A DNA stretch of 64,000 nucleotides from Pristiophorus japonicus (Eukaryota): assembly GCF_044704955.1 (NCBI RefSeq), contig NC_092002.1, positions 26,908,001 to 26,972,000 on the forward strand, given 5' to 3'. This document shows, piece after piece, positions 1 through 62,886 of this stretch. Position numbers and translations under genes: made by a program. Position 1 is the first letter of the stretch, and every line of letters begins with the position of its first letter. Below the pieces are notes generated by a model that ran no database searches, had not been told where the DNA came from, and saw only the letters and a program-made list of their open reading frames with translations.

Positions 1-1972
1 AGAGAGAGAGACTGCGCCTATAGAGAGAGAGAGACTGTGCCTATAGAGAGAGTCACTGAATCTATAAAAAGTCACTGAGCCTATAGAGAGACATGGAGCT
101 TATAGAGAGACACTGCGCCTATAGAGAAACACTGAGCCATAGAGAGAGACATGGAGCTTATAGAGAGACATCAAGCCTATAGAGAGAGACGCAGAGCCTA
201 TAGAGAGATACGGAGCCTATAGAGGAAGAGCCTATTGAGAGACACTGAGCCTATAGAGAGAGACACTCAGCCTATAGAGAGACACGGAGCCTATAGAGAG
301 TGACACTGGGCCTACAAGAAACACTGAACCTATAGAGTGAGACACTGAGCCTTTAGAGAGACACCGCGCCTACAGAGAGAGACAGGGAGCCTATAGACAT
401 TGGCACTGGGCCTATAGAGAGATACTGAGCCTATAGAGAGACTCTGAGCCTATAGAGAGACACTGAGCCTATAGTGATTGACACAGCCTATAGAGACACT
501 GAGCCTACAGAGAGACACATGGAGCCGATAGAGAGACACTGAGCCTATAGAGAGAGACACGGAGCCTATAGAGAAAGACACTGAGCCCATAGTGAGACAC
601 TGAGCCTATAGAGAGACATGGAGCCTATAGAGAGAGATGCAGAGAGTATAGAGAGACACTGCGCCTATAGAGAGAGACACTGCGCCTATAGAGAGACACG
701 GAGCCTATAGAGAAGGAGCCTGTAGAGAGACACTGAGCCTATAGAGAGAAACTGAGCCTAAAGAGAGAGACTCGGAGTTGATAGAGAGATACTGCACCTA
801 TAGAGAGACACTGTGTCTATAGAGAGAGAGAGACACACTGAGCCTGTAGAGACACAGAGGCTAGAGAGAAAGTCACTGAGCCTATAGAGAGAATCACTGA
901 GCGTATAGAGAGAGGCACGGAACCTATAGAGAGACACAGCCTATAGAGAGAGACACTGAGCGTATAGAGTGAGACACTGAGCCTATAGAGAGACACTAAG
1001 CCCGTAGAGAGACATGGAGCCTATAGAGAGCGACACGGAGAGTATAGAGAGAGACAAGCCTATTGAGAGACACTGAGCCTATAGAGAGACACTGCGTCTA
1101 TAGAGAGAGACACACACACTGAGCCTATAGAAACTGAGCCTATAGAGAAACAGAGGCTATAGAATGACACTGCGCCTATAGAGAGAGAGATGCAGAGCCT
1201 ATCGACAGACACTGAGCCTATAGAGAGACACTGCGTCTATAGAGAGAGACACACACACTCAGCCTATAGAAACTGAGCCTATAGAGACACAGGCTATAGA
1301 ATGACACTGCGCCTATAGAGAGGCACTGAGCCTATAGAGAGAGTAACTGAGCGTATAGAGAGAGGCACGGAACCTATACAGAGAGGCTGAGCCTATAGAG
1401 AGAGACATTGAGTGTATAGAGAGACACGGAGACTATAGAGAGAGACGCAGTGCCTATAGAGAGACATGGAGCCTATAGAGAGACACTGAGCCTATAGATT
1501 GCCACAGCCTGTAGAGACACTGAGCCTGTAGAGAGACACACGGAAACGATAGAGAGACACTGCGCCTAGAGAGAGACACTGCGCCGAGAGAGAGTGACGC
1601 GGAGAGTATAGAGAGAGACACTGAGCCTGTAGAGAGATAAACAGCATGTATGGAGAGACACAGCACATATGGAGAGACACTGAACCCATAGAGAGACACT
1701 GGACGATAGACAGACATGGCGCCTATAGAGAGACGTTGAGAGTATAGAGAGACATTGCGCCTATAGAGAGAGAGAGAGACTGCGCCTATGGAGAGAGAGA
1801 GACTGCGCCTATAGAGAGAGTCACTGAGCCTATAGAGAGAGACACTGAGCCTATTGAGAGACACTGCGTCTAAAGAGAGACACAACCTATAGAGACACTG
1901 AGCCTATAGAGAGTGACACTGAACCTATAGAAAGACACTGAGCCTATAGAGAGAGACAAAGAGCTTATAGAG
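1..1972. repeat. Satellite A, block 1: tandem repeat, core unit 19 bp AGAGAGACACTGAGCCTAT with variable (GA)n
   Basis: Direct reading; unit length varies (about 17-25 bp) with the number of GA dinucleotides; palindromic CTATAG at unit junctions. Confidence 0.97.
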
Positions 1973-1987
1973 GCCATTGCAGAGGCC

Positions 1988-1995
1988 TATAAAAG
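1988..1995 (+). promoter_or_regulatory. TATA-box-like TATAAAAG at the 5' end of CR1-a
   Basis: Exact TATAAAAG followed by a GC/CpG-rich stretch; function is inferred only. Confidence 0.35.
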
Positions 1996-2110
1996 GCACA
2001 GCAGGGAGTCCGGGGCCCAGCGTCGGCGGCAGTCGGGAGCAGCGTCGGGAGTCCGTTGGACTTGTGCAGCTACAGGGAGAAGGCAAAAAAGAAGTAGAAA
2101 GAAACAGAAA

Positions 2111-2155
2111 GGTGACATCACAGCCAAGGGGGTAAGTGATTGGCTGGTGATTGGT
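2111..2155 (+). promoter_or_regulatory. Putative internal promoter core of CR1-a: decayed CRE (TGACATCA) plus two inverted CCAAT boxes (GATTGG x2)
   Basis: The same block is conserved in CR1-b, where the CRE is a perfect TGACGTCA (17341-17348). Confidence 0.45.
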
Positions 2156-2231
2156 GACGAGTTTTTCTTTTTTTTCTTCTATAACAGTGAGTAAACTTTA
2201 GCATTGTTGTTGCCTATCTAAGGGTTAAGTC

Positions 2232-3160
2232 ATGGCAGGAGAGCTCGGTCACGTGATATGCTCCTCCTGTACCATTCCGGTGTCCCTGACGACTACGTGT
2301 GCGGGAAGTGTATCCACCTCCAGCTTCTGACGGACCGCGTCGCGGATTTGGAGCTGAGGGTGGATTCACTCTGGAGCATCCACGATACTGAGAATGACGT
2401 GAATAGCACGTTGAGTTAGTTGGTCATACCGCAGGTGAAGGATCCACAGCCAGCTAGGGAGAGGAAGACCAGCAGGAAGAGCAGTGCAAGGAAGGTAGTG
2501 CAGGGGTCCCCTGCGGTTATCCCCCTGCAAAACAGATACACCGCTTTGAGGACTGTTGAGGGGGATGACTCATCAGGGGAGGGCAGCAGCAGCCAAGTTC
2601 ATGGCACTGTGGCTGGCTCTGCTACACAGGAGGGCAGGAAAACGAGTGGGAGAGCGATAGTGATAGGGGATTCGATTGTAAGGGGAATAGATAGGCGTTT
2701 CTGCGGCCGCAACCGAGACTCCAGGATGGTATGTTGCCTCCCTGGTGCAAGAGTCAAGGATGTCTCGGAGCGGGTGCAGGACATTCTGAAAAGGCAGTGT
2801 GAACAGCCAGTTGTCGTGGTGCACATAGGTACCAACGATATAGGTAAAAAAAGGGATGAGGTCCTATGAGATGAATTTAAGGAGCTAGGCGCTAAATTAA
2901 AACGTAGGACCTCAAAAGTAGTAATCTCGGGATTGCTACCAGTGCCACGTGCTAGTCAGAGTAGGAATTGCAGGATAGCTCAGATGAATACGTGGCTTGA
3001 GCAGTGGTGCAGCAGGGAGGGATTCAAATTTCTAGGGCATTGGAACCGGTTCTGGGGGAGGTGGGACCAGTACAAACCGGACGGTCTGCACCTGGGCAGG
3101 ACCAGAACCAATGTCCTGGGGGGAGTGTTTGCTAGTGCTGTTGGGGAGGAGTTAAACTAA
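2232..3160 (+). pseudogene. CR1 ORF1 (CxxC-CxxC zinc finger, coiled coil, SGNH/GDSL esterase), disrupted
   Basis: Motifs IGDSIVR, PGA, HIGTND, PDGLHL; 19-nt deletion near 2274 relative to CR1-b; premature stops near 2417 and at 2867-2869 (CGA>TGA). Confidence 0.92.
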
Positions 3161-6142
3161 TATGGCAGGGGAATGGGAACCAATGCAGGGAGACAGAGGG
3201 AAACAAAAAGGTGACAAAAGCAAAAGACAGAAAGGAGATGAGTAAAAGTGGAGGGCAGAGAAACCCAAGGCAAAAAACAAAAAGGGCCATTGAATGTAAA
3301 GGGGCTGCAGGAGGGGTCAAAACTAAAAATCATGCATTAAAAACTAGTATTAAAACACTCGACCTAAACGCACGCAGCATTCGAAATAAAGTAAATGAGT
3401 TGACGGCACAAATCATTACAAAAAATTACAGAAACGTGGTTGCAGGGTGGCCAAGACTGGGAATTAAATGTACAGGGGTATCTGACGATTCGGAAAGATA
3501 GACAAGAAGGGAAAGGAGGTGGGGTAGCTCTGTTAATAAAAGATGACATCAGGGCAGTTGTGAGAGACGATATTGGCTCAAATGAACAAAATGTTGAATC
3601 ATTTTGGGTGAAGATTAGAGATAGTAAGGGGAAAAAGTCACTGGTGGGCGTAGTTTATAGGCCCCCAAATAATAACTTCACGGTGGGGCGGGCAATAATC
3701 AAGGGAATAATGGAGGCATGTGAAAAAGGAACGGCAGTAATCATTGGGGATTTTAACCTACATATCGATTGGTCAACTCAAATCGCACGGGGTTGCCTGG
3801 AGGAGGAATTCATAGAATGCAAACTGGATTGTTTCTGAGAACAGTATGTAACAGAACCTACAAGGGAGCAAGCTATCTTAGACCTGGTCCTGTGTAAAGA
3901 GACAGGAATAATAAACGATCTCCTGGTAAAAGATCCTCTCGGAATGAGTGATCACAGTATGGTTGAATTTGTAATACAGATTGAGGGTGAGGAAGTAGTG
4001 TCTCAAACGAGCGTGCTATGCTTAAACAAAGGGGACTACAGTGGGATGAGGGCAGAGTTGGCTAAAGTAGATTGGAAACACAGACTAAACGGTGGCACAA
4101 TTGAGGAACAGTGGAGGACTTTTAAGGAGCTCTTTCATAGTGCTCAACAAAAATATATTCCAATGAAAAAGAAGGGCGGTAAGAGAAGGGATAACCAGCC
4201 GTGGATAACCAGGGAAATTAAGGAGAGTATCAAATTAAAAACCAATGCGTATAAGGTGGCCAAGGTTAGTGGGAAAATAGAAGATTGGGAAAATTTTAAA
4301 CGACAGCAAAGAATGACTAAGAAAGCAATAAAGAAAGGAAAGATAGATTACGAAGGTAAACTTGCGCAAAACATAAAAACGGATAAGTAAAAGCTTTTAC
4401 AGATATATAAAACGGAAAAGAGTGACTGAAGTAAATGTTGGTCCCTTAGAAGATGGGAAGGGGGATTTAATAATGGGAAATGTGGAAATGGCTGAGACCT
4501 TAAACAATTATTTTGCTTCGGTCTTCACAGTGGAAGACACAGAAAACATGCCAGAAATTGCTGGTTACGGGAATGTGGGAAGGGAGGACCTTGAGACAAT
4601 CACTATCACTAGGGGGGTAGTGCTGGACAGGCTAATGGGACTGAAGGTAGACAAGTCCCCTGGTCCTGATGAAATGCATCCCAGGGTATTAAAAGAGATG
4701 GTGGAAGTTATAGCAGATGCATTCGTTATAAACTACCAAAATTCTCTGGACTCTGGGGAGGTACCAGCGGATTGGAAAGCAGCTAATGTAACGCCTCTGT
4801 TTAAAAAAGGGGGCAGACAAAAGGCAGGTAACTAACGGCCGGTTAGTTTAACATCTGTAGTGGGGAAAATGCTTGAAACTATCATTAAGGAAGAAATAGC
4901 GGGACATCTAGATAGGAATAGTGCAATCAAGCAGACGCAACATGGATTCATGAAGGGGAAATCATGTTTAACTAATTTACTGGAATTCTTTGAGGTTATA
5001 ACGAGCATGGTGGATAGAGGTGTACCGATGGATGTGGTGTATTTAGATTTCCAAAAGGCATTCGATAAGGTGCCACACAAAAGGTTACTGCAGAAGATAA
5101 AGGTACGCGGAGTCAGAGGAAATGTATTAGCATGGATAGAGAATTGGCTGGCCAACAAAAAGTAGAGAATCGGGATAAATGGGTCCTTTTCCGGTTGGAA
5201 ATCAGTGGTTAGTGGTGTGCCACAGGGATCGGTGCTGGGACCACAACTGTTTACAATATACATAGATGACCTGGAAGAGGCGACAGAAAGTAGTGTAACA
5301 AAATTTGCAGATGACACAAAGATTAGTGGGAAAGCGGGTTGTGTAGAGGACAGAGAGAGGCTGCAAAGAGATTTAGATAGGTTAAGCGAATGGGCTAAGG
5401 TTTGGCAGATGGAATACAATGTCGGAAAATGTGAGGTCATCCACCTTGGGAAAAAAACAGTAAAAGGGAATACTATTTGAATGGGGAGAAATTACAACAT
5501 GCTGCGGTGCAGAGGAACCTGGGGGTCCTTGTGCATGAATCCCAAAAAGTTAGTTTGCAGGTGCAGCAGGTAATCAGGAAGGCGAGTGGAATGTTGGCCT
5601 TCATTGCGAGAGGGATGGAGTACAAAAGCAGGGAGGTCCTGCTGCAACTGTATAGGGTATTGGTGAGGCCACACCTGGAGTACTGCGTGCAGTTTTGGTC
5701 GCCTTACTTAAGGGAGGATATACTGGCTTTGAAGGGGGTACAGAGACGATTCACGAGGCTGATTGCGGAGATGACGGGGTTACCTTATGATGATAGATTG
5801 AGTAGACTGGGTCTTTACTCGTTGGAGTTCAGAAGGATGAGGGGTGATCTTATAGAAACATTTAAAATAATGAAAGGGATAGACAAGATAGAGGCAGAGA
5901 GGTTGTTTCCACTGGTCGGGGAGACTAGAACTAGGGGGCACAGCCTCAAAATACGGGGGAGCCAATTTAAAATCGAGTTGAGAAGGAATTTCTTCTCCCA
6001 GAGGGTTGTGAATCTGTGGAATTCTCTGCCTAAGGAAGCAGTTGAGGCTAGCTCATTGAATGTATTCAAGTCACAGATAGATAGATTTTTATCCAATAAG
6101 GGAATTAAGGGTTACGGGGAGAGGGCGGGTAAGTGGAGCTGA
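3140..6142 (+). pseudogene. CR1 ORF2 (APE endonuclease + reverse transcriptase), several stops and frameshifts; start approximate
   Basis: LNARS, VYRPP, GDFN, SDH (APE); KSPGPD, QHGF, YLDFQKAFDKV, GVPQGSVLGP, FADD (RT); CR1-type C-terminus RPHLEYCVQFWSP...RTRGH...RVVNLWNSLP. Confidence 0.95.
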
Positions 6143-6178
6143 GTCCACGGCCAGATCAGCCATGATCTTGTTGAATGG

Positions 6179-6236
6179 CGGAGCAGGCTCGAGGGGCTAG
6201 ATGGCCTACTCCTGTTCCTAATTCTTATGTTCTTAT
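6179..6236 (+). other. CR1-a 3'UTR stem-loop and octamer tail
   Basis: GGAGCAGG...CCTGTTCC complementary arms followed by (TTCTTATG)n, as is typical of CR1 3' ends. Confidence 0.75.
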
Positions 6237-9200
6237 AGAGAGACACTGCGCCTATAGAGAAACACTGAGCCTATAGAGAGAGAGACATGGAGCTTATAGA
6301 GAGACACCAAGCCTATAGAGAGAGTCACGGAGCCTGTAGAGATAGAGCTATTGAGAGACACTGAGCCTATAGAGAGAGGCACTTAGCCTTTCGAGTCACA
6401 CTGAGCCTATAGAGAGAGATACAGCGTGTATGGAGAGACACTGAGCCCATAGAGAGACACTGAGCCCATAGAGAGTGACGCTGAGCCTATAGAGAGAGAC
6501 ACTGAGCCTATAGAGAGTGACACTGAGCCTATAGAGAGACACTGAGCCCATAAAGAGGCACTGAGCCCATAGAGAGGCACTGAGCCCATAGAGAGGCACT
6601 GAGCCCATAGAGAGACACTGAGCCCATAGAGAGACACTGAGCCCATAGAGAGACACTGAGCCCATAGAGAGACACTGAGCCCATAGAGAGACACTGAGCC
6701 CATAGAGAGACACTGAGCCCATAGAGAGACACTGAGCCCATAGAGAGACACTGAGCCCATAGAGAGACACTGAGCCCATAGAGAGACACTGAGCCCATAG
6801 AGAGACACTGAGCCCATAGAGAGACACTGAGCCCATAGAGAGACACTGAGCCCATAGAGAGAGACACTGAGCCCATAGAGAGAGACGCAGAGAGTATAGA
6901 GAGATTCACTGCACCTATAGAGAGCGACACTGAACCTACAGAGAGACACTGAGCCTATAGAGAGACGCAGTGCCTATAGAGAGACACGGAGCCTATAGAG
7001 AAGGAGCCTGTAGAGAGACACTGAGCCTATAGAGAGACACTGAGTCTATAGAGAGAGAGACACTGAGCCTGGAGAGACAGACACTGAGCCTATGGAGAGA
7101 ATCACTGAGCGTATAGAGAGAGGCACGGAACCTATAGAGAGACACTGAGACTACAGAGAGAGACACGGAGTTTATAGAGAGACACTGATCCTATAGAGAG
7201 ACGCAGTGCCTATAGAGAGACACGGAGCCGAAAGAGATTGCCACAGCCGATAGAGACACTGCGCCTATAGAGAGAGATGCGGAGTCTATCGACAGACACT
7301 GAGCCTATAGACAGACACTGAGCCTATAGAGAGAGTAACTGAGCCTGTAGAGAGAGGCACTGAGCCTATAGAGAGAGATTGCGCATATAACGAGACACTG
7401 AGCCTATAGCGGAACCCAGCCTATAGCGAGAGACTCTGAGTCTATGGAGAGGAACACTGAGCCTCTATAGAGGAACAATGAGCCTATAGAGACACTGAGC
7501 CTATATAGAGAGAGACACTGAGCCTGTAGTCACTGACCCTATAGAGTGAGACATTGACGCTGTAGTCACCGATGCTATAGAGAGACACTGAGCCTATAGA
7601 CACAGCCTATGGAGACACTGAACCTATAGAGAGAGAGAGACACTGAGCCTGTAGTCACTGAGCCTATAGAGTGAGACACTGACCCTGTAGTCACTGATCC
7701 TATAGACACTGCCTATAGAGACACAGAGTCCATAGAGAGACACTGAGCCTCTAGAGATTGACACAGTCTATAGAGACACTGAGCCTATAGAGAGACACAT
7801 GGGACCGATAGAGAGAGATACTGAGCCTATAGAGAGACACATGGAACCGATAGAGAGACACTGCGCCTAGAGAGAGAGAGAGAGAGAGAGAGACACTGAG
7901 CCTATAGAGTGAGACACTGACCCTGTAGTCACTGATCCTATAGACACTGCCTATAGAGACACTGAGCCTCAAGAGATTGACACAGTCTATAGAGACACTG
8001 AGCCTATAGAGAGACACACGGAACCGATAGAGAGAGACACTGAGCCTATAGAGAGACAAACGGAACCGATAGAGACACTGCGCCTAGAGAGAGAGAGAGA
8101 CACTGAGTCGATAGAGTGAGACACTGAGCGTATAGAGAGACACTGAGCCCATAGAGAGACATGGAGCCTATAGAGAGAGATGCGTAGAGTATAGAGAGAC
8201 ACTGAGCTTATAGAGAGAGACACTGAGCCCATAGAGAGACACTGAGCCGATATAGAGGAACACTGAGCCTATAGTCACTGAGCCTATAGACACAGTCAAT
8301 AGAGACACTGAGTCCATAGAGAGACACTGAGCCTATAGAGAGAGACACTGAGCCCATAGAGAGACACTGAGCCTATAGAGAGAAATGGAGCCTTTCGAGA
8401 GAGAGAGACTGAGCCCATAGAGAGTCACTGAGCCTATAAAGAAACACTGCGCCTAGAGAGAGACATGGAGCCGAAAGAGAGAGACGTGGAGAGTATAGAG
8501 ACACTGAGCCTATATAGAGAGACACTGAGCCCATAGAGAGACACTGAGCCCATAGAGAGACACTGAGCCTATAGAAAGAAATGGAGCCTTTCGAGAGAGA
8601 GAGACTGAGCCCATAGAGAGTCACTGAGCCTATAGAGAGACACCGAGCCTATAGCCAGGCTGGGAGCCTATAGAGAGAGACGCGGAGAGTATAGAGAGAC
8701 ACTGCGCCTATAGAGAGAGACACTGCGCCTAAAGAGAGAGATACTGAACCTATAGAGAGACGCTGAGCCTATAGAGAGAGATGCAGAGCCTATAGACAGA
8801 CAGGGAGCCTATAGAGAGACACTGAGCCTATTGAGACATTGAGCCTATAGAGACAGACATGGAGCCTATAGAGAGAGACACTGAGCCTATAGAGAGACAC
8901 TGAGCCTATAGAGGGAGACACGGAGCCTATAACGAGACACGGAGCCCATAGAGAGAGAGCCTATAGAGAGACACTGAGTCTATAGAGAGACACTGAGCCC
9001 ATAGAGAAAGACACTGAGCCTATAGAGAGACACTGAGCCTCTCGAGACACACACTGAGCTCTTAGAGAGAGACGCAGCCTATAGAGACAGTGAGCCTATA
9101 GAGAGAGACACAGAGCTTATAGAGAGACACAGCGCCTATAGAGAGACACTGTGCCTATAGAGACACAGAGGCTATAGAATGACACTGCGCCTATAGAGAG

Positions 9201-12200
9201 AGATGCGGAGTCTATCGACAGACACTAAGCCTATAGAGAGACACTGAGCCTATAGAGAGAGAGACACCGCCTATAGAGAAAGTCACTGAGCCTATAGAGA
9301 AAGTCACTGAGCCTATAGAGAGAGTAACTGAGACTGTAGAGAGAGGCATGGAGCCTGTAGAGCGAGACACTGAGCCTATAGAGAGACACTGAGCCTATAG
9401 AGAGAGATTGCACCTATAACGAGACACTGAGCCTATAGCGGAACCCAGCCTATAGCGAGAGACTCTGAGTCTATGGAGAGGAACACTGAGCCTCTATAGA
9501 GGAACACTGAGCCTATAGAGACACTGAGCCTATATCGAGGAACACTGAGCCTATAGTCACTTAGCCTATAGAGTGAGACACTGACCCTGTAGTCACTGAG
9601 CCTATAGGCACTGTCTATAGAGACACTGCGCCTATAGAGAAACACTGCGCCTAGAGAGAGACATGGAGCCTTTCGAGAGAGACGCGGAGAGTATAGAGAC
9701 ACTGAGCCTATAGAGAGAGACACTGAGCCCATAGAGAGACACTGAGCCTATAGAGAGACATGGAGCCTTTAGAGAGAGAGAGACTGAGCCCATAGAGAGT
9801 CACTGAGCCTATAGAGAGACACTGAGCCTATAGAGAGTCACTGAGCCTATAGAGAGACATGGAGAGTATAGAGAGACACTGAGCCTATAGAGAGACACAG
9901 CCTATAGCCAGACTGGGAGCCTATAGAGAGACGCGGAGAGTATAGAGAGACACTGCGTCCATAGAGAGAGACACTGCGCCGAAAGAGAGAGATACTGAAC
10001 CTATAGAGAGACACTGAGCCTGTAGAGAGAGATTGCGCCTATAACGAGACACTGAGCCTATAGCGGAATCCAGCCTATAGCGAGAGACTCTGAGTCTATG
10101 GAGAGGAACACTGAGCCTCTATAGAGGAACACTGAGCCTATAGAGACACTGAGCTTATATAGAGTGAGACACTGACCCTGTAGTCACTGAGCCTATAGGC
10201 ACAGTCTATAGAGACACTGCGCCTATAGAGAAACACTGCGCCTAGAAAGAGACATGGAGCCTATAGAGAGAGACGCGGAGAGTATAGAGACACTGAGCCT
10301 ATAGAGAGAGACACTGAGCCCATAGAGAGACACTGAGCCCAGAGAGAGACACTGAGCCCAGAGAGAGACACTGAGCCTATAGAGAGACATGGAGCCTATA
10401 GAGAGAAACGCGGAGAGTATAGAGACACTGAGCCCATAGAGAGACACTGAGCCTATAGAGAGACAAGGAACCTATAGAGAGAGACACGGAGAGTATAGAG
10501 AGACACTGAGCCTATAGAGAGACACTGAGCCAATAGCCAGACTGGGAGCCTATAGAGAGAGACGCGAAGAGTATAGAGAGACACTGCGCCTATAGAGAGA
10601 GACACTGCGCCGAAAGAGAGAGATACTGAACCTATAGAGAGACACGGAGCCTATAGAGAGAGACAGGGAGCCTATAGAGAGACATGGGGCCTATAGAGAC
10701 AGAGCCTATGGAGAGGCACTGAGCCTATAGAGCAACACAGAGCTTATAGAGAGACATTGAGCGTATAGAGAGACACTGAGCCTATTGAGACATTGAGCCT
10801 ATAGAGACAGACATGGAGCCTATAGAGAGAGACACTGAGCCTATAGAGGGAGACGCGGAGCCTATAACGAGACACGGAGCCCATAGAAAAAGAGCCTATA
10901 GAGAGACACTGAGTCTATAGAGAGACACTGGGCCTAAAGAGAGAGATACTGAGTCTATAGCGAGACACTGAGCCCATAGAGAAAGACACTGAGCCTATAG
11001 AGAGACACTGAGCCTCTCGAGACACACACTGAGCTCTTAGAGAGAGACGCAGCCTATAGAGACAGTGAGCCTATAGAGAGAGACACAGAGCTTATAGAGA
11101 GACACAGCGCCTAACTGTACCTATAGAGACACAGAGGCTATAGAATGACACTGCGCCTATAGAGAGAGATGCGGAGTCTATCGACAGACACTAAGCCTAT
11201 AGAGTGACACTGAGCCTATAGAGAGAGAGACACCGCCTATAGAGAAAGTCACTGAGCCTATAGAGAGAGTAACTGAGACTGTAGAGAGAGGCACGGAGCC
11301 TGTAGAGAGAGACACTGAGCCTATAGAGAGACACTGACCCTATAGAGAGAGATTGCGCCTATAACAAAATACTGAGCCTATAGCGGAACCCAGCCTATAG
11401 CAAGAGGCTCTGAGTCTATGGAGAGAAACACTGAGTCTCTATAGAGGAACACTGAGCCTATAGAGACACTGAGCCTATAGAGAGAGAGGCACTGAGCCTG
11501 TAGTCACTGACCCTATAGAGTGAGACATTGACCCTGTAGTCACCGAGCCTATAGAGAGACACTGAGCCTATAGACACAGCCTATGGAGACACTGAACCTA
11601 TAGAGAGAGAGAGACATTGAGCCTGTAGTCACTGATCCTATAGACACTGCCTATAGAGACACAGAGTCCATAGAGAGACACTGAGCCTCTAGAGATTGGC
11701 ACATTCTATAGAGACACTGAGCCTATAGAGAGACACACGGAACCGATAGAGAGACACTGCGCCTAGAGAGAGAGAGAGACACTGAGCCTATAGAGTGAGA
11801 CACTGAGCGTATAGAGAGACACTGAGCCCATAGAGAGACATGGAGCCTATAGAGAGAGATGCGGAGAGTATAGAGAGAGACACTGAGCTTATAGAGAGAG
11901 ACACTGAGCTTATAGAGAGACACACGGAACCGATAGAGAGACACTGAGCCTATAGAGAGACACACGGAACCGATAGAGAGACACTGCGCCTAGAGAGAGA
12001 GAGAGACACTGAGCCTATAGAGTGAGACACTGAGCGTATAGAGAGACACTGAGCCCATAGAGAGACATGGAGCCTATAGAGAGAGATGCGGAGAGTATAG
12101 AGAGAGACACTGAGCTTATAGAGAGAGACACTGAGCTTATAGAGAGAGACACTGAGCCTATATAGAGGTTCACTGAGCCGATATAGAGGAACATTGAGCC

Positions 12201-13263
12201 TATAGTCACTGAGCCTGTAGAGTGAGACACTGACCCTGTAGTCACTGAGCCTATAGACACAGTCTGTAGAGACCTGAGGCTATAGAGAGGCACTGAGTCT
12301 ATAGAGAGACACTGCGCCTATAGAGAAACACTGCGCCTAGAGAGAGACACTGAGCCTATAGAGAGAGACACTGAGCCCATAGAGAGACACTGAGCCTATA
12401 TAGAGACATGGAGCCTTTAGAGAGAGAGTCACTGAGCCCATAGAGAGTCACTGAGCCTATAGAGAGACAAGGAACCTATAGAGAGAGACGCGGAGAGTAT
12501 AGAGAGACATTGCACCTATAGAGAGAGAGAGACTGCGCCTATAGAGAGAGAGTCTGCGCCTATTGAGAGAGACTGCGCCTATTGAGAGACACTGCGTCTA
12601 TAGAGAGACACAGCCTATACAGACACTGAGCCTATAGAGAGAGACACTGAGCCTTTAGAGGGACACTGAGCCCATAGAGATTGCGCCTTTAACAAGACAC
12701 TGAGTCTATAGAGAGGAACACTGCACCTATAGAGAGACACTGAGCCTATAGAGAGACACTGAGCCGATAGAGAATCACTGAGCCTATAGAGCGAGACACT
12801 GACCCTGTAGTCACTGAACCTATGGAGAGACACTGAACCTATAGACACAGCCTATAGAGAGACACTGAGCCGATAGAGATTGACACAGCCTATAGAGACA
12901 CTGAGCCTATAGAGATACACACGGAAGCGATAGAGAGACACTGAGTCTATAGAGAAACACTGAGCCAAAAGAGGGACATGGAGCCTATAGAGAGAGACGC
13001 GGAGAGTATAGAGAGACACTGAGCATAAAGAGAGAGACACGGAACCTATGGAGAGATACTGAACCTATAGAGATACACGGAGCCTATAGAGGGAGACACA
13101 GCCTATAGAGAGACACAGAGCCAAAAGAGAGAGACGCAGAGCCTTTAGAGACATAGAGGCTATAGAATAACACTGCGCCTATAGAGAGAGACACTGAGCC
13201 TATAGAGAGAGACACTGAGCGTATAGAGAAAGTCACTGAGCCTATAGAGAGACAGCCTATAGA
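6232..13263. repeat. Satellite A, block 2 (includes a homogeneous run of GAGCCCATAGAGAGACACT at about 6541-6880)
   Basis: Direct reading; variant strings recur at kb spacing. Confidence 0.97.
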
Positions 13264-13299
13264 AACATAGAAAATAGTTTCTATGGCTGATCATTCACC

Positions 13300-16290
13300 T
13301 CAGTACCCCTTTCCTGCTTTCTCTCCATACCCCTTGATCCCTTTAGCCGTAAGGGCCATATCGAGCTCCCTCTTGAATATATCCAATGAACTGGCATCAA
13401 CAACTCTCTGCGGCAGGGAATTCCACAGGTTAACAACTCTGAGTGAAGAAGTTTCTCCTCATCTCAATCCGAAATGGCCTACCCCTTATCCTAAGACTAT
13501 GTCCCCTGGTTCTGGACCTCCTCAACATCGGGAACGTTCTTCCCGCATCTAACCCGTCCCTTCCCGTCAGAATCTTATACGTTTCTACGAGATAACCCTC
13601 TCATCCTTCTAAACTCCAGTGAATAAAGGCTCAGTTGATCCAGTCTCTCCTCATATGACAATCCAGCCATCCCTGGAATTAGTCTGGTGAACCTTTGCTG
13701 CACTCCCTCAATAGCAAGAATGTCCTTCCTCAGATTAGTAGACCAAAACTGAACACAATATTCCAGGTGAGGCCTCACTAAGGCCCTGTACAACTGCAGT
13801 AAGACCTCCCTGCTCCTATACTCAAATACCCTAGCTATGAAGCCCAACATACCATTTGCCGCCTTCACCGCCTGTTGTACCTGCATGCCAACTTTCAGTG
13901 ACTGATGAACCATGACACCCAGGTTTCGTTGTACCTCCCCTTTTCCTAATCTGCCACCATTTAGATAATATTCTGCCTTCGTGTTTTTGCCCCCAAAATG
14001 GATAACCTCACATTTATGCACATTATTCTGCATCTGCCATGCATTTGCCCACTCACCTAACCTGTCCAACTCACCCCGCAGCCTCTTAGCATCCTCCTCA
14101 CAGCTCACACCACCACCCAGTTTAGTGTCATCTGCAAACTTGGAGATATTACATTCAATTCCTTCATCTAAATCGTTAATGTATATTGTAAAGAGCTGGA
14201 GTCCCAGCACTGAGCCCTGCGGCACTCCACTAGTCACTGCCTGCCATTCTGAAAACGATCCATTTATCTCGACTCTCTGCTTCCTTTCTGCCAACCAGTT
14301 CTCTATCCACTTCAGTACATTACCCCCAATACCATGTGCTTTGACTTTGCACACCAATCTCTGGTGCGGGACCTTGTCAAAAGCCTTTTGAAAGTCCAAA
14401 TACACCACATCCACTGGTTCTCCCTTGTCCACTCTGCTAGTTACATCCTCAAAAAATTCCAGAAGATTCATCAAGCATGATTTCCCTTTCATAAATCCAT
14501 GCTGACTTGGACCGATCCTGTCACTGATTTCCAAATGCACTGCTATTTCATCTTTAATGATTGATTCCAACATTTTCCCCACTACTGATGTCAGGCTAAC
14601 CGGTCTATAATTACCCGCTTTCTCTCTCCCTCCTTTTATAACAAGTGGTGTTACATTAGCTACCCTCCAGTCCATGGGAACTGATCCAGTGTCAATAGGC
14701 CGTTGGAAAATGATCACCAATGCATCTACTATTTCTAGGGCCACTTATTAAGTACTCTGGGATGCAGACTATAAGGCCCCGGGGATTTATCAGCCGTCAA
14801 TCCCATCAATTTCCCTAACACAATTTCCCGCCTAATAAGGATATCCCTCAGTTCCTCCTTCTCACTAAACTCACTGTCCCCGAGTACATTCGGAAGGTTA
14901 TTTGTGTCTTCCTTCGTGAAGACAGAACCAAAGTATTTGTTCAATTGGTCTGCCATTTCTTTGTTCCCCATTATAAATTCACCTGAATCCGACTGCAAGG
15001 GACCTACATTTGTCTTCACTAATCTTTTTCTCTTCACATATTTATAGAAGCTTTTGCAGTCAGTTTTTATGTTCCCTGCAAGCTTCCTCTCATACTCTAT
15101 TTCCCCTTCTTAATTAAACCCTTTGTCCTCCTCTGTTGAAGTCTAAATTTCTCCCAGTCCTCAGGTTTGTTACTTTTTCTAGCCAATTTATATGCCTCTT
15201 CCTTGGTTTTAACACTCTCCTTAATTTCTCTTGTTAGCCACGGTTGAGCCACCTTCCCCGTTTTATTTTTATTCCAGGCAGAGATGTACAATTGCTGAAG
15301 TTCATCCATGTGATCTTTAAATGTCTGCCATTGCTAATCCACCATCAACCCTTTAAGTATCATTTGCCAGTCTATTCTAGCCAATTCATGCCTCATACCA
15401 TCGAAGTTACCTTTCCTTAAGTTCAGGACCCTAATTTCCGAATTAACTGTGTCACTCTCCATCTTAATAAAGAATTCTACCATATTATGGTCACTCTTCC
15501 CCAAGGGGCCTCGCACAACAAGATTGCTAATTAATCCTCTCTCATTACACATCACCCAGTCTAGGATGGCCAGCTCTCTAGTTGGTTCCTCGACATATTG
15601 GTCAAGAAAACCATCCCTAATACACTCCAGGAAATCCTCCTCCACCGCATTGCTACCAGTTTGGTTAGCCCAATCAATATGTAGATTAAAGTCGCCCATG
15701 ATAACTGCTGTACCTTTATTGCACACATCCCTTATTTCCTGTTTGATGCTGTCCCCAACCTCACTACTACTATTTGGTGGTCTGTACACAACTCCCACTA
15801 GCGTTTTCTGCCCTTTGGTATTCCATAGCTCCACCCATACCGATTCCACATCATCCAAGCTAATGTCCCTCCTCACTATTGCATTAATTTCATCTTTAAC
15901 CAGCAACGCCAGCCCACCTCCTTTTCCTTTCTGTCTATCCTTCCTAATCGTTGAATACCCCTGGATGTTGAGTTCCCAGCCTTGGTCACCCTGGAGCCAT
16001 GTCCCCGTGATACCAGTTACATCGTATCCGTTAACTGCTATCTGCGCAGTTAATTCATCCACCTTATTCCGAATACTCCTCGCATTGAGGTACAGAGACT
16101 TCAGGCTTGTCTTTTTAACACACTTTGCCCCTTTAGAATTTTGCTGTAATGTGGCCCTTTTGCTTTTTGCCTTAGGTTTCTCTGCCCTCCACTTTTACTA
16201 TTCTCGTTTCTGTCTTTTGCTTCTGCCTCCATTTTATTTCCCTCTGTCTCCTTGCATAGGTTCCCATCCCCCTGCCATGTTAGTTTAACT
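13300..16290 (-). pseudogene. CR1-b ORF2 (APE + RT), frameshifted; start approximate
   Basis: ORF pieces 15334-16062 (APE: VYRPP, GDFN, SDH), 15097-15309, 14735-15037 and 13575-14744 (RT: QHGF, DFQKAFDKV, PQGSVLG, FADD). Confidence 0.95.
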
Positions 16291-17227
16291 CCTCCCCAAC
16301 AGCACTTGCAAACACTCCCCCTAAGACATTGGTTCCGGTCCTGCCCAGGTGCAGACTGTCCGGTTTGTACAGGTCCCTCTTCCCCCAGAACCGGTTCCAA
16401 TGTCCCAGGAATTTGAATCCCTCCCTTTTGCACCACTCCTCAAGCAACGTATTCATCTGCGCTATCCTGCGATTCCTACTCTGACTAGCACGTGGCACTG
16501 GTAGCAATCCTGAGATTACTACTTTTGAGGTCCTACTTTTTAATTTAGCTCCTAGCTCCCTAAATTCATCTCGTAGGACCTCATCCCAATTTTTACCTAT
16601 ATCATTGGTACCTATGTGCACCACGACAACTGGCTGTTCACCCTCCCTTTTCAGAATGCCCTGCACCCGCTCTGAGACATCCTTAACCCTTGCACCAGGG
16701 AGGCAACATACCATCCTGGAGTCTCGGTTGCAGCCGCAGAAACGCCTATCTATTCCCCTTACAATAGAATCCCCTACCACTATCGCTCTCCCACTCTTTT
16801 TCCTGTCCTCCTGTGCAGCAGAGCCACCCACAGTGCCATGAACTTGGCTGCTGCTGCCCTCCCCTGATGAGTCATCCCCCTCAACAGTACCCAAAGCGGT
16901 GTATCTGTTTTGCAGGTGGATGACCGCAGGGGACCCCTGCACTACCTTCCTTCCACTGCTCTTCCTGTTGGTCTTCCACTCCCTATCTGGCTGGGTACCC
17001 TTTACCTGCAGTGAGACCAACTCGCTAAACGTGCTATTCACATCATTCTCAGCATCGTGGATGCTCCAGAGTGAATCCACCCGTAGCTCCAGTGCCGCAA
17101 TGCGGTCTGTCAGGAGCTGCAGGCGGATACACTTCCCGCACACATAGTCGTCAGGGACACCGGAAGTGTCCCTGACTTCCCACATCGTACAGGAGGAGCA
17201 TAACATGTGTCCGAGCTCTCCTGCCAT
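16280..17227 (-). CDS. CR1-b ORF1p, intact 315 aa: zinc finger, leucine-zipper/coiled coil, SGNH esterase
   Basis: ATG to stop is open; CSSC...CGKC, LQLLTDRIAALELRVDSL heptads, VGDSIVR, HIGTND, PDSLHL. Confidence 0.9.
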   Translation of the reverse strand: MAGELGHMLCSSCTMWEVRDTSGVPDDYVCGKCIRLQLLTDRIAALELRVDSLWSIHDAENDVNSTFSELVSLQVKGTQPDREWKTNRKSSGRKVVQGSPAVIHLQNRYTALGTVEGDDSSGEGSSSQVHGTVGGSAAQEDRKKSGRAIVVGDSIVRGIDRRFCGCNRDSRMVCCLPGARVKDVSERVQGILKREGEQPVVVVHIGTNDIGKNWDEVLRDEFRELGAKLKSRTSKVVISGLLPVPRASQSRNRRIAQMNTLLEEWCKREGFKFLGHWNRFWGKRDLYKPDSLHLGRTGTNVLGGVFASAVGEELN

Positions 17228-17307
17228 GACTTAACCCTTACATTAACTTAATTTGGCAACAGCAAGGTTACTTACTGATAAAGAAAAGAAAAAGAAAAAC
17301 TACTCAC

Positions 17308-17348
17308 CAATCACCAGCCAATCACTTACCCCCTTGGCTGTGACGTCA
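17308..17348 (-). promoter_or_regulatory. Putative internal promoter core of CR1-b: CRE TGACGTCA plus two CCAAT boxes
   Basis: CCAATCA occurs twice, 12 bp apart, near a perfect TGACGTCA at 17341-17348; homologous to 2111-2155. Confidence 0.45.
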
Positions 17349-17402
17349 CCTTTCGATTTCTTTCTACTTCTTTTTTGCCTTCTCCCTGTAGCTGTACCGG
17401 CC

Positions 17403-18257
17403 CCGCCTCCTCGATCTCCCGCTCCGCCTCTCCGACCCCTTCTCGATCTCCCGTTCCGCCTCCTCGATTTCCCGCTCCGTCTCTCCGACCCCTCCTCGAT
17501 CTCCCGCTCCGCCTCCTCGATCTCCCGCTCCGTCTCTCCGACCCCTCCTCGATCTCCCGCTCCGCCTCCTCGATCTCCCGCTCCGCCTCCTCGATCTCCC
17601 GCTCCGCCTCTCCGACCCCTCCTCGATCTCCCGCTCCGCCTCTCCGACCCCTCCTCGATCTCCCGCTCCGCCTCTCCGACCCCTCCTCGATCTCCCGCTC
17701 CGCCTCTCCGACCCCTCCTCGACCTCCCGCTCCGCCTCTCCGACCCCTCCTCGATCTCCCGCTCCGCCTCTCCGACGCCTCACCAACATCCCGCTTCACC
17801 TCTCCGACCCCTCCTCGACCTCCCGCTCCACCTCTCCGACCCCTCCTCGACCTCCCGCTCCACCTCTCCGACCCCTCCTCGACCTCCCGCTCCGCCTCCT
17901 CGATCTCCCGCTCCGCCTCCTCGATCTCCCGCTCCACCTCTCCGACCCCTCCTCGATCTCCCGCTCCGCCTCTCCGACCCCTCCTCGACCTCCCGCTCCA
18001 CCTCTCCGACCCCTCCTCGATCTCCCGCTCCACCTCTCCGACCCCTCCTCGATCTCCCGCTCCGCCTCTCCGACCCCTCCTCGATCTCCCGCTCCACCTC
18101 TCCGACCCCTCCTCGATCTCCCGCTCCACCTCTCCGACCCCTCCTCGATCTCCCGCTCCACCTCTCCGACCCCTCCTCGATCTCCCGCTCCACCTCTCCG
18201 ACCCCTCCTCGACCTCCCTCTCCGACGCCTCACCAACATCCCGCTCCGCCTCCGACG
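17403..18257 (-). repeat. CpG-rich tandem array of 32-bp monomers (with 21-bp partial units) forming the 5' end of CR1-b
   Basis: + strand unit CCTCTCCGACCCCTCCTCGATCTCCCGCTCCG, period 32 checked at 17701/17733; lies inside the flanking direct repeats of CR1-b. Confidence 0.93.
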
Positions 18258-18260
18258 ATG

Positions 18261-18366
18261 CTATAGAGAGACACGTAGCCTATAGAGACACAGCTTATAG
18301 AGAGACATTGCGCCTATAGAGGGACACTGAGCCTATAGTGGGACACAGCCTATCGCGAGAGACACG
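18261..18366. repeat. Satellite A, block 3 (short spacer between CR1-b and CR1-c)
   Basis: About 5 degenerate units of GAGACACTGAGCCTATA. Confidence 0.9.
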
Positions 18367-20475
18367 TAGAAACATAGAAAATAGGTGCAGGAGTAGGCCA
18401 TTCGGCCCTTCGAGCCTGCACCACCATTCAATAAGATCATGGCTGATCATTCACCTCAGTACCCCTTTCCTGCTTTCTCTCCATACCCCTTGATCCCTTT
18501 AGCCGTAAGGGCCATATCTAACTCCCTCTTGAATATATCCAATGAACTGGCATCAACAACTCTCTGCGGCAGGTAATTCCACAGGTTAACAACTCTGAGT
18601 GAAGAAGTTTCTCCTCATCTCAGTCCTAAATGGCCTACCCCTTATCCTAAGACTGTGTCCCCTGGTTCTGGACTTCCCCAACATCGGGAACATTCTTCCT
18701 GCATCTAACCTGTCCAATCCCGTCAGAATTTTATATGTTTCTATGAGATCCCCTCTCATTCTTCTAAACTCCAGTGAATACAGGCCCAGTCGATCCAGTC
18801 TCTCCTCATATGTCAGTCCTGCCATCCCGGGAATCAGTCTGGTGAACCTACGCTGCACTCTCTCAATAGCAAGAACGTCCTTCCCCAGATTAGAAGACCA
18901 AAACTGAACATAATACTCCAGGTGAGTCCTCACTAATGGCCCTGTACATTTGCAGTAAGACCTCCCTGCTCCTATACTCAAATCCCCTCGCTATGAAGGC
19001 CAACATGCCATTTGCCTTCTTCACTGCCTGCTGTACCTGCATGCCAAATTTCAATGACTGATGTACCATGACACCCAGGTCTCGTTGCACCTCCCCTTTT
19101 ACTAATCAGTCGCCATTCAGATAATATTCTGCCTTCGTGTTTTTCCCCCCAAAGTGGATAACCTCACATTTATTCACATTATACTGCATCTGCCATGCGT
19201 TTGCCCACTCACCTAACCTATCCAAGTCACCCTGCAGCCTCTCAGCATCCTCCTCACAGCTCACACCACCACCCAGCTTAGTGTCATCTGCAAACTTGGA
19301 GATATTACACTCAATTCCTTCATCTAAATCGTTAATGTATATTGTAAAGAGCTGGGGTCCCAGCACTGAGCCCTGCGGCACTCCACTAGTCACTGCCTGC
19401 CATTCTGAAAAGGACCCGCTTATCCCGACTCTCTGCTTCCTGTCTGCCAACCAGTTCTCTATCCACGTCAATACATCACCCCCAATACCATGTGCTTTAA
19501 TTTTGCACTCCAGTCTCTTGTTTGGGACCATGTCAAAAGCCTTTTGAAAGTCCAAATATACCACATCCACTGGTTCTCCCTTGTCCACTCTACCAGTTAC
19601 ATCCTCAAAAAATTCTAGAAGATTTGTCAAGCAGGATTTCCCTTTCATAAATCCATGCTGACTTGGACCGATCCTGTCACTGCTTTCCAAATGCGCTGCT
19701 ATTACATCTTTAATAATTGATTCCAACATTTTCCCCACTACTGATGTCAGGCTAACCGGTCTATAATTACCCATTTTCTCTCTCCCTCCTTTCTTAAAAA
19801 GTGGTGTTACATTAGCTACCCTCCAGTCCATAGGAACTGATCCAGAGTCGATAGACTGTTGGAAAATGATCACCAATGCATCCACTATTTCTCGGGCTAC
19901 TTCCTTAAGTAGTCGGAGATGCAGACTATCAGGCCCCGGGGATTTATCGACCTTCAATCCCATCAATTTCTCGAACACAATTTCCCGCCTAATAAGGATT
20001 TCCTTCAGTTACTCCTCCTCACTAGACACTCGGTCCCCCAGTATTTTCAGAAGGTTATCTGTGTCTTCCTTCGTGAAGACAGAACCAAAGTTTTTGTTTA
20101 ACTGGTCTGCCATTTCTTTGTTCCCCATTATAAATTCACCTGAATCTGACTGCAAGGGACCTATGTTTGTTTTCACTAATCTTTTTCTCTTCACATGTCT
20201 ATAGAAGCGTTTGCATTCAGTTTTTATGTTCCCAGCAAGCTTCCTCTCATACTCTATTTTCCCCCTCCCAATTAAACACTTTGTCCTCCTCTGCTGTATT
20301 ACAAAATTCTCCTGTCTCAGGTTTGCTGCTTTTTCTGACCAATTTATATGCCTCTTCCTTGGTTTCAACACTTTCCTTAATTTCCCTTGTTGAGCCACCT
20401 TCCCCGTTTTATTTTTACTCCAGGCAAGGATGTACAATTGTTGAAGTTCATCCATGTGTTCTTTAAATGTTTGCC
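18367..20475 (-). mobile_element. CR1 LINE, 5'-truncated, same subfamily as CR1-b (CR1-c); RT pseudogene with complete 3'UTR
   Basis: Tail TAGAAACATAGAAA; RT ORF 19106-19978; colinear with 13283-15329; homology stops at TTGCC (20475). Confidence 0.95.
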
Positions 20476-21082
20476 TATAAAGGGAGCCACTGAGCCTATT
20501 GAGAGACACTGAACCTATAGAGAGATGCTGAGCCCTTAGAGAGACACAGAGCCTATAGAGAGAGACGTGGAGCGTATAGCGAGACACGGAGCCTATAGAG
20601 AGACACTGCGCCTATAGAGAGAGACACTGAGCTTATAGAGAGAGAGGGACACTGAACCTATCAAAAGAGACACTGAACCTATAGAGTGACACTGAGCCTA
20701 TAGAGAGACACTGAGCCTATAGAGAGACACTGAGCCTATAGAGAGACACTGAGCCTATAGAGAGACACTGAGCCTATAGAGAGAGAGAGACACTGAACCT
20801 ATCGAAAGAGACACTGAACCGATAGAGTGACACTGAGCGTCTTGAGAGACACAACCTATAGAGTGTCACTGAGCCTATAGAGAGAGACACTGAGCCTATA
20901 GAGAGAGACACGGAGCCTATAGAGAGAGACACTGAGCCTATAGAGAGAGACACGGAGCCTATAGAGAGACACTGAGCCTATAGTCACTCAGCCTATATAG
21001 AGAGACGCGGAGCCCATAGACATAGACACTGTGCCTATAGAGAAACACAACGTATAGAGAGAGACACTGAGCCTAGAGAGAG
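20473..21082. repeat. Satellite A, block 4
   Basis: Direct reading; several perfect 19-mers at about 20690-20780. Confidence 0.96.
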
Positions 21083-21300: not shown

Positions 21301-21505
21301 TGAGCAGATCAGCAAGCAACAATCTCAGATGGACCGTTTGTACGTGAGCCTGAAGGACCTCGCCGAGGAGCGGAAAGGCAAGCTCGAGCAACATTACTGG
21401 CTCTTCCAGCTCAACCGGGAGGTTGACGAACTGGAGCAGTGGATCGCACAACGAGAGGTTGTAGCGGGGTCGCCAGAACTGGGACAGGACTATGAGCACG
21501 TGACA
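21301..21505 (+). CDS. SPTBN4: Beta-spectrin internal exon (spectrin repeats), most similar to beta-IV spectrin; 205 nt, phase 2 to 0
   Basis: Acceptor TTCTGGCGCAG|, donor ACA|GTAAGT; peptide [68 protein letters not shown]; the YWL and GSPELG residues are as I recall for SPTBN4 rather than SPTBN1. Confidence 0.9.
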
Positions 21506-24859: not shown

Positions 24860-25234
24860 CTACTGCTGGACAAGTTCACGGAGTTTGCTCACGAGACAGG
24901 GGTGATTGGGCAGGAGCGGGTCAACACCATCAATCAGATGGTGGACGAGCTGATTGATTACGGCCACACAGACGCAGCCACCATCGCGGAGTGGAAGGAT
25001 GGTGTGGGTGAAGCCTGGGCAGATCTGCTGGAACTGATAGAGACTCGAGCTCAGATGTTGTCAGCCTCCCAGGAACTGCACAAGTTCTTCACTGACTGTA
25101 AGGAGGTGGTTGTCCACATTGAGGAGAAACACAAACAGCTCCCGAACGTTGCCGTCGGCGATTCCAGCAGCACCTTTACTCTGCAACGAATGCTGAGTTC
25201 ATTCGAACACGATATCCAGGTGCTGGTCACACAG
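24860..25234 (+). CDS. SPTBN4: Beta-spectrin internal exon (spectrin repeats, ankyrin-binding region), 375 nt, phase 0 to 0
   Basis: Acceptor TTTCCCTCAG|, donor CAG|GTATTT; LLLDKFTEFAHETGVIGQERVNTINQMVDELIDYGHTDAATIAEWKDG...TRAQMLSASQELHKFF...FEHDIQVLVTQ joins in frame to the previous exon. Confidence 0.92.
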
Positions 25235-62602: not shown

Positions 62603-62886
62603 GGTTGAGGGAGGCGGTGGAGGAGCGTGGGTGGGGGCTGGGCGGGACCCCTCACTCGGGGCCGAAGCAGCAAGCCCCCCTTCCGGAGGTGAGCTGAAGG
62701 CGGTGTCCAGGTGGGGTCTAACTCGGGCTTCGGTACGGTGCACGGTGCCGGCCCACCGCTGTCTGCCTCACCGGTGAGCCAGGTCGAATGGCGAGATGTT
62801 GCTGCATTTACACCGTTGATACAAGGCACAGGAGGCGCAGGCTTGTCCATTTCAGTCAAAATACCCTTTCAACAATGTGATGATTG

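Follow-up and report, generated by a model that had tools for sequence, protein, structure and literature searches.

The three CR1 elements that interrupt satellite A in this window, a 64,000-nucleotide stretch of Pristiophorus japonicus DNA, very probably inserted independently of one another, each by ordinary untargeted target-primed reverse transcription and at about the density found across the genome. We favour this reading because the repeat occupies a single locus, because the density of CR1 within it is close to the genome-wide one, and because its tail-target overlaps are as seen elsewhere. The first-pass annotation had proposed that the satellite is targeted as a landing pad by these subfamilies. 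It is partly supported, since the insertions and junctions that it described are real, but the targeting claim fails: the satellite is a single locus against more than 100,000 dispersed copies, insertion density is that of the background, and the palindrome held to be the target is not enriched. The arrays and the coding stretches between them are the following:

1 to 1972, no strand assigned: left block of satellite A (window part), 19-bp unit AGAGAGACACTGAGCCTAT
6237 to 13263, no strand assigned: middle block of satellite A
18261 to 18369, no strand assigned: satellite A spacer between CR1-b and CR1-c, containing the sister variant unit ACGTAGCC
20473 to 21082, no strand assigned: right end of satellite A
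21329 to 21505, + strand: coding stretch with spectrin repeat (PF00435, 2.3e-07), probably a host-gene exon
24860 to 25234, + strand: coding stretch with spectrin repeat (PF00435, 2.5e-15), probably a host-gene exon
25369 to 60516, no strand assigned: satellite B, 27-bp unit

Satellite A is a minisatellite at one locus, not a multicopy target. All 75 matches of a 25-mer taken from it fell at the window locus or at its second assembled copy, and a further exact-pattern search gave eight matches, all eight at the same locus; both searches used exact patterns, which may overlook diverged arrays. A family spread through the genome was accordingly rejected. The left block runs upstream beyond the window for about 19 kb, to window coordinate about -19,000, and these 19 kb contain no CR1; the stretch of array to the left of CR1-a, about 21 kb in the window copy and 26.8 kb on contig C3959, is likewise free of CR1. 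The whole array measures 28.7 kb in the window copy and about 35 kb on C3959, rather than the 10 kb or so of the first-pass annotation, and its left block differs by 5.8 kb between the two assembled copies. Redundancy was measured by 50-mer diagonals, and as satellite A is 99% non-redundant on this measure it is probably old. Its units carry CCTATAG 709 times vs CTTATAG 27 times, and GAGCC 777 times vs TAGCC 14 times. Inside a neighbouring, unrelated GTAC minisatellite there is one more CR1, the fourth, which belongs to the b/c type, measures 3.8 kb and is absent from C3959.

The elements, their parts and their target-site duplications lie as follows:

1964 to 1972, + strand: CR1-a target-site duplication CTTATAGAG, left copy, in a variant, non-palindromic unit
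1973 to 6236, + strand: CR1-a, near-full-length, with 3' stem-loop and (TTCTTATG)n tail
6232 to 6240, + strand: CR1-a target-site duplication CTTATAGAG, right copy
13257 to 13263, + strand: CR1-b duplication CTATAGA, left copy, with intact CTATAG palindrome
13259 to 18260, - strand: CR1-b, full-length, ORF2 broken
13266 to 13285, + strand: CR1-b fold-back, CATAGAAA-ATAG-TTTCTATG
13578 to 14744, - strand: CR1-b RT part (PF00078)
15337 to 16194, - strand: CR1-b APE part (PF03372/PF14529)
16283 to 17224, - strand: CR1-b ORF1, open, esterase (PF13472, E 2e-12)
17406 to 18224, - strand: CR1-b tandem 5' region, 32-bp repeat
18261 to 18267: CR1-b duplication CTATAGA, right copy, at the start of the satellite A spacer
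18367 to 20475, - strand: CR1-c, 5'-truncated, 2.1 kb, 91% identical to CR1-b
19109 to 20008, - strand: CR1-c RT part (PF00078), frame broken

The three, all dead copies, are CR1-clade LINEs, an assignment that rests on element structure, with pairwise identities of 70-91% (differences of 9-30%). The ORF1 of CR1-b is PF13472 and the ORF1 region of CR1-a is 88-95% identical to it; Kapitonov and Jurka reportedly described in 2003 that the ORF1 of this clade carries an esterase domain. CR1-a has two internal stops in ORF1 and a broken ORF2. Its 5' end consists of about 9 extra bases followed by a start within the last 5' monomer, and its first 26 bases have exact matches only at this locus because the extra junction bases are included in them; a separate search located 5' ends of the family elsewhere. 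In having APE and RT parts with an esterase (GDSL/SGNH) ORF1, a repeat of 8 bp behind a 3' hairpin, short duplications and many copies truncated at the 5' end, the elements resemble the vertebrate CR1s described in the excerpts compared (PMC8665684, PMC4245944). Unlike the avian CR1 tail, ATTCTRTG, the octamers here are TTCTTATG and TTTCTATG, and the 5' ends are tandem monomers with TATAAAA, unlike those of the vertebrate CR1s compared; both are traits of the lineage and not a new mechanism.

The junctions were largely as first described. CR1-a lies between its two copies of CTTATAGAG with a tail-target overlap of 5 bp (CTTAT), CR1-b lies between two copies of CTATAGA with an overlap of 5 bp (TCTAT, element strand), and CR1-c is joined through TAG at its 3' end (18367 to 18369) and GCC at its 5' end (20473 to 20475), with at most 1 bp duplicated. 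Removal of the elements restores satellite-like sequence, the rebuilt CR1-a and CR1-b sites showing 2 mismatches in 28 against other units, and all six CR1-satellite junctions are identical on C28 and C3959. The sites were, however, wrongly taken to be all at the palindromic CTATAG, with CR1-c at the same unit position. They differ, being CTTATAG (not a palindrome) for CR1-a, CTATAG for CR1-b and TAGCC for CR1-c, with no fixed unit position, and the intact palindrome hosts one of the three local copies, CR1-b only. The target TAG of CR1-c is found within the variant ACGTAGCC, upstream of and outside the core, where the usual unit has GAGCC, and its rebuilt empty site reads CCTATAAA, not CTATAG.

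Exact searches found 76,733 and 29,807 CR1 3' ends for the two subfamilies genome-wide, together at least 106,540 dispersed ends. A satellite A flank was present at 0 of 198 distinct 3' ends sampled elsewhere, a sample drawn largely from the start of contig C1, and no 3'-flank consensus emerged beyond the tail overlap and the first base. With background density measured as 31 ends in 400 kb, the 3 copies in the 28.7 kb of satellite A compare with 2.2-2.9 expected (P of at least 3, 0.38-0.55), base totals of the array carrying about 10 tail bases in this and the other density and P-value tests. Insertion into satellite A is thus no denser than into bulk DNA, contrary to the targeting claim. The contrast first drawn with satellite B stood in part: satellite B does hold zero CR1, and 3 in 9.7 kb vs 0 in 35.1 kb gives P=0.010, but with the whole of array A this becomes P=0.09, and P=0.19 when restricted to non-duplicated satellite bases. 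Its emptiness is probably explained by tandem arrays being poor in CR1, by recent internal duplication, which makes up about 40% of satellite B (longest run 5.65 kb), and by slightly fewer priming sites. That CR1 is enriched in tandem DNA overall was rejected, as 14 of 168 flanks were tandem vs 21-47% tandem DNA in the background.

Tail-primed retrotransposition, also part of the first proposal, is upheld as a genome-wide property. In 57 insertion targets rebuilt from host repeats the tail-target overlap averaged 1.98 bp vs 0.55 in the shuffled null (maximum of 5000 shuffles, 1.04), and in 47 sites 2.04 bp vs nulls of 0.34-0.52. Overlaps of 5 bp occur in two of the three local copies vs 1 of 57 sites elsewhere, and the array offers such sites in bulk. 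Direct calling found target-site duplications in 15 of 87 copies vs 7.5 by chance, mostly of 4-7 bp, and is weak because the duplications are short. Apart from a weak preference for A directly after the tail (79 of 160 vs 47-51 expected), there was no target motif beyond the overlap. A preference for the palindrome was rejected: AG follows a TAT-ending tail in 439 of 12,304 and 148 of 4,309 cases (3.4-3.6% vs 5.6-6.3% expected) and in 1 of 35 junctions of a cleaned sample, CTATAG occurs in 0 of the 57 rebuilt sites, and of 30 copies on C1 that are flanked by CTATAG, 0 lie in satellite A. When overlaps are weighted as observed, with rough weights from 44 sites, the position between CTAT and AG ranks above every other in the satellite A unit, on either strand; satellite A then scores 1.3 times background and satellite B 0.8-0.87 times, while the core carries 27-32% of the weight in 7.1% of the sites. 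Two of three insertions at the core has P=0.22 under this model vs P=0.014 under uniform sites.

Untargeted insertion would proceed as follows. The APE domain may nick with little sequence preference, and the freed DNA end would pair over 1-5 bases, the footprint of which is present at the junctions, with the 8-nt repeat tail of the RNA, so that nicks beside tail-like bases would be extended more often. Within the satellite A unit such pairing would favour TAT or CTAT on either strand, as well as variant units with a closer match to the tail. A short stagger in second-strand cleavage could have produced the duplications of 9 bp at CR1-a and 7 bp at CR1-b, whose lengths are uncertain because tandem-repeat flanks are alike by default. 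The 5' end of CR1-c was presumably joined via its 3-bp overlap, and that of CR1-a would have gained its extra bases on joining.

Satellite A might instead serve long CR1s as a sink or refuge, locally and to a modest extent, the family itself being untargeted, either because it is nicked or accessible more often or because an old intronic array loses fewer of its long copies. We regard this as unlikely. Relative to other tandem arrays, with 4 ends in 133.5 kb, its density is about 3.5-fold higher, but with P=0.11, and the long stretch of array to the left of CR1-a is empty. The copies are long, all three being at least 2 kb vs 18 of 70 sampled copies (post hoc P=0.017) and two near full length vs 7 of 70 (P=0.028), and the neighbouring fourth CR1 is likewise long; sampled lengths, however, come out too short where a copy is interrupted, since scoring covered no more than its 3'-most aligned block, and the window was chosen for its striking look. 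The two 5-bp overlaps and the probable age of the array fit a sink, and the three copies are grouped at one array end (P=0.15).

At least as unlikely, taken as a whole, is a fuller version in which a palindromic, tail-matching minisatellite acts as a two-strand sink that takes up long CR1s several-fold above other arrays, with 5-bp tail pairing stabilising priming and favouring complete reverse transcription, and in which CR1-b also records reverse transcriptase folding back on its own cDNA and skipping the RNA stem-loop during priming. CR1-b carries a short inverted copy of its tail in place of about 53 bp of 3' UTR including the stem-loop, an arrangement found at this locus only, and the same nested 3' hairpin that is lost in CR1-b is predicted in CR1-a and CR1-c (z -0.77 and -2.25, respectively). 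A source element without the stem-loop was rejected as the origin of CR1-b, with 2 matches only.

It is highly improbable that the layout arose after insertion, whether the array expanded, CR1s recombined with one another or the assembly is wrong, or that the duplications are chance matches between satellite units. The 5.8-kb difference in the left block and the default likeness of flanks in any tandem-repeat insertion would allow it, but the six junctions agree between C28 and C3959, the rare CTTATAG variant stands on both sides of CR1-a, and none of the three elements is a copy of another. That these subfamilies insert specifically at the CTATAG palindrome, or at the satellite A unit, as members of the Tx1 or R1 clades do at their targets, has practically no chance of being correct: two of three junctions do lie at the core, on opposite strands, but the dispersed copies, the unenriched TAT-AG junction, the counts of 0 of 30 and 0 of 57 and the single local copy at an intact palindrome refute it at the family level, so that only a hidden sub-lineage of these three divergent elements could escape.

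According to the excerpts of PMC4640811, target-specific non-LTR elements comprise the Tx1 clade, the R1 clade and RLE clades such as those of Utopia and Togen, and repeat targeting is found mainly in these. The elements studied here share with them a location inside repeats, and Tx1 and R1 also use APE; in those elements most copies occupy one constant position in a target present many times over (PMC4640811), whereas here 0 of 198 sampled copies have the flank in common and the presumed target is one locus. Satellite targeting, if true, would have made this a CR1 whose target is a fixed repeat; at the family level it is not real, and no title on satellite-targeted CR1 was found in the literature searched. 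With its more than 100,000 young copies, its two kinds of tail and empty alleles at some loci, this genome would be a good data set, in which the effects of overlap length and first flanking base on CR1 site choice could be measured. Tails of CR1, L2 and RTE elements overlap their targets by one to several bp in the excerpts of PMC6007223, and 3'-microhomology-primed reverse transcription of these elements is attributed to Ichiyanagi and Okada (2008), as cited in PMC6007223 and PMC4245944. The overlap at the target start seen here, with a mean of about 2 bp, shows no essential difference from that process; it is known CR1 behaviour and a tidy example of tail priming. The weak preference for A after the tail is absent from the accounts of microhomology priming compared, as excerpted (PMC6007223, PMC4245944). 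Target duplications of L2 and CR1 peak at 3-5 bp in the excerpts of PMC4245944, a peak that the local 9- and 7-bp duplications exceed, and the 5-bp overlaps of CR1-a and CR1-b stand at the long end.

The window (G000:C28:26,908,001-26,972,000) belongs to a contig of 27.5 Mb, whose end is about 0.55 Mb away, in an assembly of 5.92 Gb. It holds two arrays, satellite A, with a 19-bp unit, and satellite B, with a 27-bp unit (25369-60516), and both are probably intronic because spectrin-repeat coding stretches stand between them, in a host gene that we take to be beta-spectrin-like. In window coordinates, where negative values are upstream, satellite A reaches back to about -19,000, and 28.7 kb was taken for the density comparison. 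A second copy of the locus, on contig C3959, has all six CR1 junctions identical to those on C28, and we read it as the other haplotype.

CR1 copies and coding stretches at the locus (window coordinates)
-23,445 to -19,630 (G000:C28, L073-L070): b/c-type CR1 of 3.8 kb, in an unrelated GTAC minisatellite
1973-6236, + strand: CR1-a, flanked by CTTATAGAG on both sides
13259-18260, - strand: CR1-b, a CTATAGA copy on each side, 5-bp overlap
18367-20475, - strand: CR1-c, joined through TAG and GCC, at most one base duplicated
21329-21505: spectrin-repeat coding stretch between satellites A and B
24860-25234: spectrin-repeat coding stretch between satellites A and B

The three copies in satellite A, which presumably resemble cartilaginous-fish CR1s, represent three events, given their pairwise identities (a-b 74%, a-c 70%, b-c 91%), and their ORF2 frames are all broken. 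The first-pass annotation had placed all of them at a palindromic CTATAG, but this holds for CR1-b only. CR1-a entered CTTATAG, which occurs in 27 units against 709 with CCTATAG and shares 5 bases with the tail of this element, compared with 3 for the common unit; the CR1-a tail, (TTCTTATG)n, and its target have CTTAT in common. CR1-c entered ACGTAGCC, whose one intact occurrence in the array lies about 90 bp leftward. The targets of CR1-a and CR1-c are consistent with pairing of the tail and not with a fixed position in the unit. At the 5' end of CR1-a, comparison with other long copies shows about 9 extra bases, followed by a start within the last 5' monomer.

The proposal that satellite A serves as a landing pad for CR1 is refuted at the level of the family. 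All 75 matches to an exact 25-mer of the unit, and all 8 to an exact 51-mer, fall at the window locus on C28 or C3959, a search by exact patterns that could miss diverged arrays elsewhere. Exact 3'-end 42-mers find 76,733 matches genome-wide for the b/c type and 29,807 for the a type, and none of 198 distinct 3' ends in loci fetched outside the window locus (0/168 in an earlier pass) is flanked by satellite A, in a sample unevenly composed of top BLAST hits, the first-listed places on contig C1 and 40 evenly selected 10-kb stretches. The neighbouring 3.8-kb copy serves as a control, since its b/c-type subfamily also enters a repeat without CTATAG; GTAC is duplicated around it, the overlap is 2 bp, and its presence on C28 and absence from C3959 make it a polymorphism with a readable empty site.

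Nor is the palindrome itself preferred to any great extent. Of 12,304 tails that end in CTAT and have A, C or T as the next base, 439 continue with AG (3.6%; a type, 148/4,309, 3.4%), where background predicts 5.6-6.3%; these denominators include mutated longer tails (4/7 in a small check), and the true share could rise to about 8%, so that enrichment of CTATAG is at most about 1.4-fold. In a cleaned sample AG follows a TAT end in 1/35, and of 30 C1 copies flanked by CTATAG, none lies in satellite A.

The density of insertions is likewise unexceptional against bulk DNA. Forty background stretches (400 kb) contain 31 young 3' ends (13 in the genome-wide stretches, 18 in those from C28), which gives an expectation of 2.2-2.9 in 28.7 kb against the 3 copies found (P(>=3) 0.38-0.55), and since the 3'-end anchor used for the background would miss CR1-b, the like-for-like count is 2. 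Tandem arrays make up 133.5 kb of that background and flank 4/31 ends; relative to their rate satellite A is about 3.5-fold higher (P=0.11), which counts against an ordinary density. The reported contrast between three CR1s in satellite A and none in satellite B stands as to the copies, but blastn and tblastn find no CR1 in the roughly 21 kb of satellite A left of CR1-a (26.8 kb on C3959). For satellite B, an array free of CR1 has P=0.03-0.07 if insertions come at the bulk rate, and about one insertion is expected there at the array rate. The non-redundant part of satellite B is 21.1 of its 35.1 kb, with recent internal duplications of up to 5.65 kb. With lenient settings, tandem repeat makes up 47% of twenty 10-kb C28 samples (L243-L262) and 21% of twenty from larger contigs.

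What does hold, as a footprint seen genome-wide, is tail priming. For CR1 copies inserted in another repeat, the target was reconstructed from the host repeat's other copies. An initial pass over 134 clean flanks gave 68 with host matches, of which 21 were dropped for a start mismatch; the remaining 47 sites overlap by 2.04 bp on average (shuffled tails 0.52, random places 0.34), with at least 2 bp at 30 of them. A larger pass, excluding 38/198 ends with degenerate tails, gave 57 sites from 160 ends and a mean of 1.98 bp (null 0.55; maximum over 5000 shuffles 1.04), both subfamilies behaving alike. Directly after the tail, 79 of the 160 clean ends have A, where 47-51 would be expected (P about 1e-7), and G is underrepresented (23 vs 42); the excess of A is not seen for TAT ends (13/35), and these 160 ends show no other flank consensus past the overlap.

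Weights derived from 44 of these sites, with 3 duplicate rows taken out, predict 1.3x background for satellite A and 0.8-0.87x for satellite B (scored over its first 12 kb). The top-weighted position is the CTAT|AG boundary on both strands, and the satellite A core carries 27-32% of the weight on 7.1% of the sites. Two of three insertions at the core have P=0.014 under uniform choice and P=0.22 under overlap weights, and therefore the non-random phase is real and is explained without targeting. The earlier observation is partly confirmed, and the behaviour of CR1 found here is already known: the tails of CR1, L2 and RTE elements share one to several bp with the target, an overlap attributed to RNA-DNA pairing (PMC6007223). 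Duplications peak at 3-5 bp for L2 and CR1 and extra 5' bases are frequent in ZfL2-2 (PMC4245944), 5' joining is treated in PMC4760211, CR1 is defined by EN, RT, a hairpin and an 8-bp tail (PMC8665684), and most target-specific families belong to early-branched, Tx1 and R1 groups (PMC4640811). A literature search, whose coverage left out most subscription journals, found no title on satellite-targeted CR1.

A modest surplus of long copies in satellite A is a compatible, though less likely, reading of the data. All three are at least 2 kb long, as are 18/70 in the sample (P=0.017, post hoc); two of three are near full length, against 7/70 (P=0.028), the sampled lengths being lower bounds; all lie within 7.1 kb of array (P=0.15). 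From the 3' UTR of CR1-b about 53 bp are missing, among them the hairpin that is predicted for CR1-a and CR1-c; a short inverted copy of the tail (13266-13285) replaces the 3' stem-loop, with a junction found at this locus on C28 and C3959 only. Since the first cDNA strand of CR1-b corresponds to the top strand, reverse transcriptase may have folded back at the RNA hairpin; later repair with templated insertion fits equally well.

Between CR1-a and CR1-b (2064-6200 vs 13290-17397) the ORF1 region is 88-95% identical and ORF2 69-77%, and L127 and L129 are b/c-type copies with a-type 5' monomers, which suggests, from sequence comparison, that 5'/ORF1 modules may have been exchanged between the subfamilies. 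Long copies (L263-L287; window 1983-1997) start with GC-rich tandem monomers with TATAAAA, variable in number, and CR1-b (17406-18224) has a 32-bp repeat without this box. At G000:C2:240,847,174-240,887,141, four 3' ends of the CR1-a type follow one another at intervals of about 13 kb; the two that were fetched (L018, L019) have identical flanks, so that this is likely a tandem segmental duplication. Broken ORFs at 61410-62868 (- strand), with no Pfam match for 61413-62438, presumably resemble a Penelope-type RT/GIY-YIG element. Older short CR1-related fragments lie outside the satellites at 23735-24271 (+) and about 63600-63815 (-).
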